Below, one piece after another: positions 27,001 to 28,482 of a stretch of DNA of 28,482 nucleotides. This DNA comes from Actinomycetota bacterium (lineage in GTDB: Bacteria; Actinomycetota; AC-67), in NCBI GenBank assembly GCA_044868775.1, contig JBIOWR010000006.1, positions 1-28,482 of the forward strand. Reading direction: 5' to 3'. Position numbers and translations under genes: made by a program. The notes below the pieces were generated by a model, which worked only from the letters and a program-made list of their open reading frames with translations, was not told the origin of the DNA and did no database searches. Within the stretch, counting starts at the first letter, position 1, and each line of letters starts with the position of its first letter.

Positions 27001-27232
27001 CGGCGACGTGCTCGAGGAATCCCGCGCATTGCTCATCCAGGCACGCGCACGCTTCGGCCTTGGCGCGTGGGGCGAAGCCGACCGCCTGGCCGCTGCGGCG
27101 CTCGCGCTCGCCGACGCCGAGGATCAGCTCGACGTGCGCGCGGGTGCGCGCGAGGTACGCGCGTCGGCACTGAAACAGCTCGGCCGCGAAGACGACGCCG
27201 CGCTATTCGGCAACGACGGCGCTTACGAGTAG
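24092..27232 (+). CDS. Class III adenylate/guanylate cyclase-STAND (AAA_16) ATPase-TPR multidomain protein; start codon uncertain
   Basis: RRLVTVLFADLSGFT (first metal Asp, upstream of the first ATG at 24179), VNTMGDG, DVVGDTVNTASR, Walker A GAPGVGKS, Walker B LIVEDLQWAD, GGNPLF and a long helical TPR-like C-terminus. Confidence 0.9.
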   Translation, partial: VDAQAARRERRLVTVLFADLSGFTSAAESMDPEEVHDLVVPLMDRLQGVVESHGGTIVNTMGDGFFAVFGAPVAHPDDAERAVRAAFATRSAVRASREGPAFDLHCGIQTGWVSIAPGRHTIDVVGDTVNTASRIAGLAAPGVVLVGDTTRSLTTGSIRYRELGPVTLKGKAEPLRVFEALEVRNSALERFFEPAFTPLIGRDTERRRLDEHFANVTRTKTSNVAVIAGAPGVGKSRLASEFASSLADATILVGRGVPFGERIPWLAISHALRGFAGIDDGDALDAAREKLWTTVEHALPHEPGEQHAQLVAQLGLLLRIDEKATPSRAVPGEFNYEMAAALRRFMTGLAGQRPVVLIVEDLQWADPEVASFLRWVHDEPWSEPAMILGLVWEDALDTLGFTRDDDAVTTLGSLGRPDLDALTRFLLPGADVPDDVAADLALRSGGNPLFLQEIVRLLREQGTLVAEPERWVLLDASGRCVPESVHLVVAARIDGLDPEERRLVRDAAVCGPVFSAAALRALGWRDVEGVLHSLEDRGLVFSRGGEYGFNHTVTRDVAYDSIPRSERAGKHLAVAEWLRASGDERVELLAYHYAQAALVGLQRPGGDVAALAMTYLTRAGDRALAQRALREAESWYRQAIELQPPAPARAHTQDGVKTLAALMRHAEVLYDLSRYDDAREEASRALEMAGIAGDARAQGAAYLQLARLDSLFGDIEAARMILDLADAKFREACDDVGRAHVVRAVADTWRLGDIRRMVTGLEQAARMYAEAGDWRNQHFVFEDLAYVHTTHSDVEFERYVGESVPLVERAGDRRSRAALLRTRGFHGFYRGRFDEAFGPLTEAMTLARDGGDVFVECDCMYLLARIHLERGDVSEAQRLGDALVHFGASQGLRRIEEEGLVVLARIAAREGRAQDADRSLKRARALLEEIGADREMVEVVLAEAQIALERSEWERAFEQAQRYGSEVARYGDVLEESRALLIQARARFGLGAWGEADRLAAAALALADAEDQLDVRAGAREVRASALKQLGREDDAALFGNDGAYE

Positions 27233-28014
27233 GAGTGCTCCGGTCCGGGATACTCTCCCGAACCGACCTCGCTCGCGTACCGCCGCGCCGCATCGCCGAT
27301 GATCTGTGCAACGTCGGCGTATCGTTTCACGAATCGCGGGAGCTTGCCGTCGCTGAGGCCGATGAGGTCGTTGATCACGAGCACTTGCCCGTCGGTGTGC
27401 GACCCGGCCCCGATGCCGATCGTCGGGATCGCAAGGCGCTTGGTCACGCGCTCCGCAAGGTCGCTCGGAACGCATTCGAGCACGAGCGCGAACGCTCCCG
27501 CTTCCTCCAGCTCCTTTGCATAGCGCAGGATGCGATCGGCCGACTCTTCGTTGCGGCCTTGCACCTTGTAGCCGCCGAACAGGTTGACGGACTGCGGCGT
27601 GAGCCCGAGGTGCCCCATGACCGGCACGCCGATCGAGGAGAGCGCAGACGTCAGCCCCGCTTGCGGGCCTTCGACCTTCACCGCATGAACGTTGCCTTCC
27701 TTGAGGAAGCGCGTTGCGCTGCGCACGCCTTCGTCCACCGAGACGCCGTACGAGCCGAACGGCATGTCGCCGACGACGAGCGCGTTGCGTGCGCCGCGCG
27801 CGACGGCGCGGCAGTGGTGCAACACCTCGTCCACGCTGACCGGCACCGTAGTGTCGTAGCCGAGGACGACCTGCCCCAGCGAGTCGCCGACGAGCAAGAC
27901 CGGGATCCCGGCGTCGTCGAGGATGCGAGCCGTCTGGACGTCGTACGCGGTGAGCATCGCGAATCTCTCGCCGCGCGCCTTGAAGGCCGCCAGATCGTGG
28001 ATCGTCGTGCCCAT
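27223..28014 (-). CDS. panB: 3-methyl-2-oxobutanoate hydroxymethyltransferase
   Basis: MLTAYD, LVGDSLG, DMPFGSY, AVKVEG, GHLGLTPQ, GAF..VLECVP and GIGAG...DGQVLV..D. AAGGAGG RBS before ATG 28014. Confidence 0.97.
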   Translation of the reverse strand: MGTTIHDLAAFKARGERFAMLTAYDVQTARILDDAGIPVLLVGDSLGQVVLGYDTTVPVSVDEVLHHCRAVARGARNALVVGDMPFGSYGVSVDEGVRSATRFLKEGNVHAVKVEGPQAGLTSALSSIGVPVMGHLGLTPQSVNLFGGYKVQGRNEESADRILRYAKELEEAGAFALVLECVPSDLAERVTKRLAIPTIGIGAGSHTDGQVLVINDLIGLSDGKLPRFVKRYADVAQIIGDAARRYASEVGSGEYPGPEHSYS

Positions 28015-28199
28015 GATGCCTCCTTGCCTCCAGGCCCTCGCGGCGTGCGGGCGCGCGCCGGTCGTCGGGTCCCAGTGCCTGGGTGAATTGTGCCAGTGTG
28101 ACGGCGCTCGCGCACCCTGAACGTTCGCGGCAAGGCGAGGGAATGCGGAGAACGCGCCCCGGGGCATTCGTCCCAGCAACCCCTAGTCATCGCGAGCCA

Positions 28200-28450
28200 T
28201 TTTCCGTGGAGGGGCTTATCGGCGCCGCCCGAGGAGCCGAATACACAAGGGAGTCACCGAGCACAAAGTGTTGCGGCCCGAGGGATGAAGCCCCGCAAGG
28301 GGCGAGGGATGAAGGACCAGGCAACTGCGCGGGCTCACCGGCAAGGCGGTAACACAACGGTAGATGTGGGGACCTACCTTCATACGAGCTCTTCGAAAGC
28401 CAGGGGACGTACATCGAGGGCGAGCCACGCGGCTCGCCCTCTTCAGTTGT
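28200..28450 (+). ncRNA. Putative Ms1-like (6S-like architecture) small RNA, ~250 nt
   Basis: No credible ORF. Nested long-range helices GGCTT/AAGCC, CGAGGAGC/GCTCTTCG and GTGTTGC/GTAACAC surround an A-rich bubble. Motifs ACCGAGCAC, AAAGTGTTGCGG and GGTAAC match my recollection of mycobacterial Ms1/MTS2823. A strong terminator sits at the 3' end. The 5' end is approximate. Confidence 0.6.
28416..28450 (+). terminator. Rho-independent terminator
   Basis: Perfect 11-bp stem GAGGGCGAGCC-ACGC-GGCTCGCCCTC followed by TTCAGTTGT. No plus-strand CDS ends nearby, which implies a non-coding transcript. Confidence 0.8.
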
Positions 28451-28482
28451 GGGGGCGTTCTGCGTCGCGGCGGGTGGCGCCA

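Follow-up and report, generated by a model that had tools for sequence, protein, structure and literature searches.

RNAs that bind RNA polymerase (RNAP) in bacteria include 6S RNA, Ms1 and CoRP. Ms1 associates with the sigma-free RNAP core and builds up in stationary phase. In Ms1 (Rfam family RF02566; M. smegmatis Ms1, M. tuberculosis MTS2823 and S. coelicolor scr3559), the central bubble and its flanks are the most conserved parts, and deletion of the bubble strongly reduces binding to RNAP core (Hnilicova et al. 2014, PMC4191392). 6S RNA (RF00013) is present as two paralogues in some bacteria, such as 6S-1 and 6S-2 of B. subtilis, and Corynebacterium glutamicum carries CoRP, an RNAP-binding RNA of 516 nt that is located between tRNA genes and cleaved into two fragments (PMC11077062). 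Here we analyse an RNA gene located within the last 290 bases of a 28,482-nt stretch of DNA (hereafter the window), which is the entire contig C6 of a metagenome-assembled genome, 71% complete and made of 309 contigs, from an uncultured Actinomycetota bacterium (GenBank assembly GCA_044868775.1, contig JBIOWR010000006.1). We propose that, roughly, positions 28196-28449 of the plus strand are a stand-alone, unannotated gene whose product is a folded non-coding RNA about 250 nt in length, which belongs to an undescribed family limited to one uncultured class of Actinomycetota and probably acts in trans as a binding platform or decoy, a reading to which we give, as a whole, a probability of about 0.6. 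The family itself is a genuine, previously undescribed family of structured small RNAs (sRNAs). An unannotated, independently terminated, structured sRNA gene was also what the original prediction, made from the letters of the window, had seen here, and this part of it is supported.

The family is defined by a conserved core that forms a four-helix rod (P1, P2, P3 and P4; Table 1), which is maintained by compensatory changes. The fold was derived with RNAalifold plus inspection, and the resulting covariance model (CM), R2, comprises 94 positions and 23 pairs. The outermost helix, P1, is about 9-10 bp long and is followed by an asymmetric loop, L1, whose long strand ends in an invariant AAAGU. 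P2 (GUUGY in the family) is almost fixed in sequence and is separated by a 2-nt bulge on the 3' side from P3, which covaries and has one C.A mismatch in the window copy. Beyond P3 lies L3, a symmetric 10x10 internal loop with GAGGNAUGAA facing GAGGGAUGAA in the family and two identical GAGGGAUGAA strands facing each other in the window copy; the rod is capped by the P4 hairpin, which is variable in sequence, covarying, and 3-9 bp long across the family. In a MAFFT alignment of 23 sequences (A1), the core has 36 invariant columns. On 69 distinct sequences, 87% of the cells are paired overall, against 34-52% in controls with slid partners, and the proportion reaches 96% for P2/P3 and 98% for P4; on the same sequences, 14 of the 23 pairs exhibit changes on both sides, and none of 500 shuffles reaches the observed score. 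The independent alignment A1 gives comparable proportions (82% of cells paired overall, 96% for P2/P3).

This family fold differs from the one that the window sequence adopts by itself. Every sequence string quoted in the original prediction was found in its place, and the rod with nested helices that it had folded by hand agrees with the minimum free energy (MFE) fold of 28196-28449 (-105.6 kcal/mol), which holds the CGAGGAGC/GCUCUUCG and GUGUUGC/GUAACAC helices. The outer rod is not a family feature, however, because the segment 28340-28415, the source of GUAACAC, of GGUAG/CUACC and of the 3' strands of the outer helices, is not matched in the genomes of other species. Similarly, GTGTTGC/GTAACAC had been thought to close an apical domain containing GGCCCG/CGGGCT, whereas across the 68 other distinct copies the partner of GUUGC is 28321-28325 and that of GGCCC is GGACC at 28314-28318; the proposed A-rich bubble at 28238-28267 is partly the 5' strand of the conserved P1. 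Enforcing the family core on the window sequence gives -98.1 kcal/mol, 7.5 worse than the MFE, and the fold z-score relative to shuffles is -2.18 (modest) on the plus strand and -1.58 on the minus strand. The closed outer rod, the apical-domain closure and GGUAAC would at most be traits of this lineage.

Table 1. Positions of the RNA gene, its structural elements and its neighbour in the window
Feature	Position	Strand	Description
Conserved core rod	28248-28339	+	92 nt; defining element of the family; 84.2 bits with R2
P1	28251-28261/28328-28336	+	3' strand CGCGGGCUC
L1	28262-28269/28326-28327	+	CACAAAGU facing UG
P2	28270-28274/28321-28325	+	GUUGC/GCAAC
3'-side bulge	28319-28320	+	AG
P3	28275-28279/28314-28318	+	GGCCC/GGACC
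L3	28280-28289/28304-28313	+	Internal loop
P4	28290-28303	+	GCCCC-GCAA-GGGGC
Type-A-specific 5' domain	28196-28247	+	CAUUUU 28198-28203, CUUAUC 28215-28220, CGA 28238-28240; variable hairpin (about 28220-28239) between the last two
Type-A upstream block	28169-28189	+	CGTCCC 28169-28174, TAGTCA 28184-28189; candidate promoter or 5' boundary
Spacer, core to terminator	28340-28415	+	76 nt; lineage-specific, longest in the family, not alignable
Intrinsic terminator	28416-28449	+	Stem 28416-28426/28431-28441, loop ACGC, tail UUCAGUUG, dG -24.0 kcal/mol
panB	27223-28014	-	PF02548, E 3.6e-108; divergent neighbour, context outside the element

Several observations support a stand-alone gene. The plus-strand terminator that had been predicted is confirmed as an 11-bp GC stem, and a comparable strong hairpin (dG -17 to -31 kcal/mol) is located 3' of the core in all 32 copies for which downstream sequence is available (33 copies in total). 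The spacer between core and terminator, which in the window carries GUAACAC (28349-28355), the GGUAG/CUACC hairpin (28359-28378), GCUCUUCG, AAGCC and GGGGA, measures 10-64 nt elsewhere, save in two copies where the scan took a later hairpin. As had also been predicted, there is no protein gene upstream on the plus strand: panB lies on the minus strand, and no open reading frame (ORF) overlapping 28083-28482 has a Pfam match on either strand. The 5' end is less sharply defined, and our guess is that transcription of the window RNA starts at about 28195-28197. The sequence blocks of the 5' domain listed in Table 1 are invariant columns in an alignment of 21 type-A copies (A4; the two types of copies are described below). 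RNAalifold on a MAFFT alignment of this domain returned no consensus pairs; its hairpin is visible by eye in each sequence and is also present in the MFE fold of the window.

Possible transcripts of this region were found in one soil metatranscriptome, X12, in which a 151-nt contig, 94% identical to the window, covers 28298-28447 and has one of its ends at the terminator tail; depth is zero over 27990-28297 in this dataset, and panB is represented by short cross-species fragments only. In runs X5 and X11 (library type unknown), contigs cover 28212-28405 and reach about 16 nt further left (to about 28196). Together, they hint at a discrete transcript of about 250 nt. Among the RNA copies, there is no conserved reading frame: core lengths fall into all three modulo-3 classes (25/17/27), and the spacing of two AUGAAG motifs likewise falls into all three frame classes.

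The class to which the organism belongs is represented in our genome collection by a single family with 21 species genomes from 15 genera. R2 detects one or two strong copies (62-91 bits) in 19 of these 21 genomes, the window copy having a genome-wide E-value of 1.1e-20. BLAST aligns only about 28250-28337, at 72-94% identity, in 18 of 20 family genomes (usually twice in each), and finds no match in 40 genomes of other families. In 140 other Actinomycetota genomes, R2 returns nothing beyond one 24-bit hit in G127, a low-GC genome of another family; this hit resembles the UGAAG loop and was rejected because of its position within a 377-aa ORF. From JGI metagenomes, a pattern scan added 52 soil contigs, all of which were confirmed by R2. 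An exact-pattern scan of genome contigs returned 27 stretches, and those from Pyrinomonadaceae, WWE3, Cyanobacteriota and Methylomirabilota, which have no significant CM hit, were discarded as chance matches; one stretch labelled Acidobacteria is the same contig as in a genome that GTDB places in the class.

The RNA resembles Ms1 in being a free-standing actinobacterial sRNA of the abundant type, with a rod, one or more internal loops and a terminator, and the original prediction had taken it for a compact member of the Ms1 family. This assignment failed with the Rfam model, in the reciprocal CM search, in the shared sequence blocks and in synteny. The search with the Rfam Ms1 and 6S models that the prediction had suggested gave no match in the window, in its own genome or in relatives. 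More generally, no Rfam 15 family matches the window at gathering threshold, and no real match appears at E<=10 on 27950-28482 or in the loci of eight relatives; the permissive matches were rejected as junk (pieces of human long non-coding RNAs, a 13-bit match to ftsZ-DE, and plant MIR528 lying on a terminator hairpin). RF02566 (gathering threshold 162 bits) has no hit in the own genome at E<=0.001 and none in 10 genomes of the class, and scores 147-316 bits in four Mycobacteriales-type genomes of another family in the same search. RF00013 (gathering threshold 46.4 bits) is found in none of the 21 class genomes at E<=0.01, and is found in the controls (E. coli, B. subtilis and others). In the reverse direction, R2 does not rank the Ms1 loci of four Ms1-bearing genomes: its best hits (E 0.2-8) are elsewhere, and only terminators score within the loci.

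Sequence blocks common to Mycobacterium and Streptomyces Ms1 were defined by comparing four Ms1 loci (L049-L052) with the S. coelicolor sequence (PMC9130861 supplement). These blocks, CACCCACGCG in the 5' strand and ACGCUUGGUAACCGG in the 3' strand, are absent from all of the 33 copies checked, as are TTGGTAAC, CTTGGTA and CACCCAC (0/33). GGTAAC, which the original prediction had read as an Ms1-type motif, occurs in the RNA body of the window copy only among these 33. The synteny typical of Ms1, with a HAD hydrolase/phosphoserine phosphatase and an oxidoreductase (PMC9130861), was not found: genes next to the copies are panB, adenylate cyclase, NAD synthase, uvrA, ECF (extracytoplasmic function) sigma, histidine kinase, GT2, LarA-like, response-regulator and TIM-barrel genes, and the panB context, which had been put forward as a new one for the family, is shared by no other copy. 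The new family further departs from Ms1 in lacking similarity at the CM level in either direction, in its core (about 92 nt versus about 300 nt), in the lack of a 5' hairpin, in having a symmetric GAGGGAUGAA loop where Ms1 has an apical domain made of a branched helix of about 95 nt, and in having two paralogues. Nor does the conserved fold show the 6S architecture (long closing stem, large asymmetric bubble and long terminal stem); 5'/3' closure is present only in the single-sequence fold of the window copy. By the available tests, membership in Ms1, 6S or any other Rfam family is not supported.

There is nevertheless one module in common with mycobacterial Ms1. The motif that the original prediction attributed to mycobacterial Ms1, AAAGUGUUGCGG, is indeed present there, where it borders the RNAP-binding bubble and so occupies the structural place that it has here; its remark that an intervening hairpin is missing here was also right, as genuine Ms1 has a small hairpin between GGAGCAC and AAAGUGUUGCGGGCC (Rfam-verified loci L049-L051, with AGAAGUG in L051). 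In the Rfam alignment of L049, AAAGU is unpaired at the bubble/multiloop, and GUUGCG/CGCAAC is paired; next come a bulge on the 3' side and a helix, GGCCU/AGGCC. This order is that of L1, P2, bulge and P3 in the new family, in which the invariant AAAGUGUUG(Y) is paired to GCAAC. When a family profile is run against the four Ms1, its highest local match falls on the module in three of them and outscores 497-500 of 500 dinucleotide shuffles, over a length of only 12-19 nt. The AAAG part varies within the four Ms1 loci (AAAAGUG, AGAAGUG, AGGAGUG), and AGGAGUGUUGUGG is among the variants of AAAGUGUUGCGGGCC; in L052, GUUGCG/CGCAAC covaries to GUUGUG/CACAAC, the Y position varying as in the new family. 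Outside the mycobacteria, the S. coelicolor Ms1 (PMC9130861 supplement) lacks AAAGUGUUG and has no GUGUUG at all. The 12-mer AAAGTGTTGYGG is found in 16 of 20 class genomes versus 72 of 380 other Actinomycetota, where it is scattered in much the same way as a reversed-pattern control, and no third lineage stands out in the count over 400 Actinomycetota genomes. The resemblance is real but short, and is compatible with convergence or with chance at about the 1% level (a rough estimate that takes the freedom of the comparison into account).

Genomes usually carry two paralogues, namely type A, to which the window copy belongs (about 29 copies), and type B (about 30 copies). Type-A copies have an invariant TAGT, with GGTCCC/CGTCCC located 8-10 nt upstream, and a 5' domain of about 55 nt; their neighbours vary (panB in the window only, elsewhere uvrA and an ECF sigma gene, or a histidine kinase and GT2). 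Type-B copies begin essentially at P1 and are preceded by a GGWAAC-N14/15-(C)GTAGTTA motif that is kept across genera (e.g. L016:1593-1623 (-), L082:570-600 and L083:568-600), which we take to resemble ECF-sigma promoters (GGAAC...GTT; SigE/SigH/SigR-type). Of five near-complete genomes, three have the RNA gene marked by the exact pattern, one of these with an additional site, and a fourth has a single unrelated match; such a distribution points to a sigma factor or regulator that controls very few genes. Type-B copies are accompanied by a divergent gene for an ECF sigma factor (Pfam Sigma70_r2/r4/ECF), either as a direct neighbour or with a single LarA-like gene in between, and the ECF sigma orthologue is located on the contig of the RNA in at least 16 genomes. 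On the other side, the type-B terminator is faced by convergent response-regulator and TIM-barrel genes. Autoregulation was considered and rejected, as no type-B promoter motif was detected in front of the neighbouring ECF sigma gene.

A few loci depart from this arrangement. Two genomes, G005 and G014 (91% and 96% complete), have no RNA copy by BLAST or CM but do contain the orthologue of the linked ECF sigma gene; the 3.6 kb beside it gave no hit when scanned with the CM at full sensitivity. As these genomes keep the sigma orthologue without the RNA, RNA loss is not coupled to sigma loss, and the absence looks like a lineage-specific loss in two genera. In L005:1494-1809 (= G006:C57:6725-7040; also in L034), two complete, separately terminated copies stand in tandem at a distance of about 220 nt, and the type-B promoter of the L005 pair precedes the upstream copy only. 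Finally, the type-B-linked ECF sigma orthologue at G012:C14:109736-110401 contains two in-frame stops (TGA and TAA) next to an intact RNA, and may be a pseudogene or result from an assembly error.

About 36 positions are invariant across 15 genera and accompanied by covarying helices, and such conservation usually means that there is a specific macromolecular or ligand partner. Joint constraint on loop sequences and helix pairing is typical of protein- or ligand-recognised RNAs, not of seed-type antisense RNAs. In our model, selection would act on the sequences of the internal loops and of P2, and on the pairing of P1, P3 and P4; the RNA would exert its effect in trans by binding a protein, possibly a dimer, for which it would be a platform or a decoy, and would not be an antisense regulator. 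Judging from conservation patterns, we consider the odds of a trans-acting, protein-binding RNA to be somewhat better than even, because the constraint concerns loops and a helix rather than one exposed seed, and because identical purine-rich GAGGGAUGAA strands face each other. These facing L3 strands suggest either a two-fold symmetric binder or a structured non-canonical helix. RNAs of the CsrB/RsmZ type provide a partial parallel: as in these, a purine-rich motif that contains GGA (GAGGGAUGA) is repeated within one RNA of the new family, several paralogues occur per genome, and the two sites of the new family, separated by a hairpin, would suit a dimeric binder. Unlike in CsrB/RsmZ, there are only two motif copies, they are located in an internal loop instead of hairpin loops, and the 5' copy often lacks GGA (GAAGCAUGAA, CAGGUAUGAA). 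The idea of a decoy for mRNA sites was dropped, as GAGGGATGAAG and its complement are found only in the RNA itself in its own genome. A literature search on the family motifs returned nothing relevant.

The leading single candidate for the partner is RNAP, although we regard it as unlikely to be the right one. It leads because the class has no detectable 6S or Ms1, because the module matches the edge of the Ms1 bubble, and because CoRP provides a precedent. Indeed, CoRP is likewise a lineage-restricted structured RNA absent from Rfam, and fills the RNAP-binding role in a group devoid of Ms1 and 6S; it is set apart by its published size, cleavage and location, and RNAP binding by the new family is putative. 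The likeness to 6S concerns total length (about 150-190 nt for type B) and a rod-like hairpin with a large internal loop, and as the class has no recognisable 6S, the 6S role is left open there. L3 is symmetric (10x10), near-invariant and purine-rich, in contrast to the asymmetric and poorly conserved 6S bubble, the distal helix has 3-9 bp, and the ends are not paired into a closing stem and are followed by a separate terminator hairpin. It is rather doubtful that the family is a further class-specific RNAP-binding RNA after 6S, Ms1 and CoRP in which AAAGU/GUUGY:GCAAC is the same RNAP-contact element as in mycobacterial Ms1. If it were, the module might be an ancient Ms1-like element kept in a deep-branching class or might have converged on the same polymerase surface, and the two paralogues, one with an ECF-type promoter beside an ECF sigma gene, would adjust how much polymerase is available under stress. 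No structural study of the Ms1-RNAP contact turned up in the open papers searched.

Several points weigh against our reading of the RNA as a protein-binding platform or decoy expressed from its own gene. Its expression evidence amounts to one assembled contig from a relative (94% identity), and the contigs carry neither strand nor abundance information. The alignments used for pair counts (A2 and A3) were fitted to the model and are biased towards it. With only 3-9 bp beyond L3, P4 makes a short helix compared with the downstream duplex expected of a 6S-like RNA. Changes are tolerated in the first copy of the L3 motif (GAGGNAUGAA, GAAGCAUGAA), and the two L3 strands are therefore not equivalent; L3 may also be a closed non-Watson-Crick helix, like the purine-rich loop E of bacterial 5S rRNA, instead of an open bubble. 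Finally, base-pairing stress sRNAs such as MicA and RybB typically have an ECF-type promoter.

This last point leads to the main rival, a trans-acting base-pairing sRNA of an ECF-sigma stress regulon, with AAAGU or the GAGGGAUGAA strands as the seed, which we consider unlikely. It would explain why the type-B motif (GGWAAC-N14/15-GTAGTTA) resembles ECF promoters, why an ECF sigma gene is linked in most genomes, and why there are a Rho-independent terminator and paralogue pairs with a common core, which are frequent in such sRNAs. The ECF-sigma sRNAs of E. coli (MicA, RybB and MicL) are similarly small genes with an ECF-like promoter, an intrinsic terminator and a linked ECF sigma. MicA, RybB and MicL act by a short 5' seed and have little conserved structure, whereas in the new family a covarying rod is conserved in its several internal loops and a helix, over about 60 nt altogether, far beyond a seed. 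In addition, the candidate seeds are buried in internal loops of a stable rod, the ECF-like motif is missing before the adjacent sigma gene, and a search of the own genome found no other occurrence of the complement CUUCAUCCCUC, so that there is no perfectly matched target, although imperfectly paired ones may exist. Alternatively, the RNA might be a highly diverged and shortened Ms1 homologue that binds RNAP core via the bubble-edge module. Mycobacterial Ms1 has the same order of elements (single-stranded AAAGU, GUUGYG/CRCAAC, 3' bulge and GC helix), the local profile match exceeds at least 497 of the 500 shuffles in three Ms1, and the Ms1 region concerned is the conserved bubble on which binding to RNAP core depends (PMC4191392); the lack of detectable 6S or canonical Ms1 in the class and the terminator hairpin after the rod, as in Ms1, fit as well. 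Such descent is rather improbable given the lack of RF02566 and reciprocal CM hits, the missing Mycobacterium/Streptomyces blocks and HAD-hydrolase/oxidoreductase synteny, the presence of two paralogues per genome instead of one gene, the background frequency of the 12-mer elsewhere in the phylum, and a match of 12-19 nt whose AAAG part itself varies in two of the four Ms1 (AGAAGUG and AGGAGUG). Moreover, S. coelicolor Ms1 binds RNAP core yet is devoid of the motif, which is therefore neither ancestral to Ms1 nor required.

A cis-acting role is much harder to reconcile with the data. A riboswitch or attenuator whose terminator controls a gene beyond the contig end would have the usual layout of a transcriptional riboswitch (a conserved aptamer-like core, a variable spacer and a terminator), three loci (L004, L006 and L008) carry a same-direction ECF sigma gene 60-100 nt past the terminator, and the window stops 33 nt past its terminator, before any downstream gene. 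We nevertheless regard a leader as very improbable, because the next gene is convergent in about 30 type-B copies (a response regulator on the other strand) and in L003, the closest relative of the window copy (NAD synthase), and because neighbours differ between loci (sigma, glycosyltransferase or NAD synthase downstream); there is also no conserved alternative anti-terminator pairing. A small peptide translated from one of the two AUGAAG motifs, each of which follows GAGGG, is hardly credible. Although GAGGGAUGAAG looks like a Shine-Dalgarno sequence plus AUG, and the second AUG opens a short frame, MK(S/G)xATAR..., in most copies, the distance from Shine-Dalgarno to AUG is only 1-2 nt, the variable codons consist of P3 nucleotides that covary with the other strand, the two AUGs occur in all three relative frames, core lengths are not restricted to multiples of three, and there are no Pfam hits.

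In our view, the find is solid and moderately interesting, not exceptional. New families of RNAs conserved this strongly are rare enough to merit cataloguing, and this one could be the polymerase-binding RNA of an uncultured soil class in which neither 6S nor Ms1 is detectable. If the link to Ms1 is true, the family would provide a small (about 95 nt), testable minimal module for Ms1-type RNAP contact; if it is false, the family would still be a clean candidate for Rfam and provide an ECF-style promoter/sRNA pair for regulation in an uncultured lineage.

Two observations concern the 3' end of the gene. The terminator stem AGGGCGAGC..GCUCGCCCU is kept across paralogues and genera in most copies (e.g. 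window 28416-28441, L014, L019 and L007), which goes beyond the need of a plain terminator; the stem may belong to the working part of the RNA, or mark a tract in which paralogues recombine. In addition, the contig ends 33 nt past the terminator, and the assembly and independent Logan contigs of a source-like run, X1, both break about 20-40 nt past it (record 4 ends at 28461). These breaks, at 28461-28482, hint at a repeat or at strain heterogeneity just downstream.

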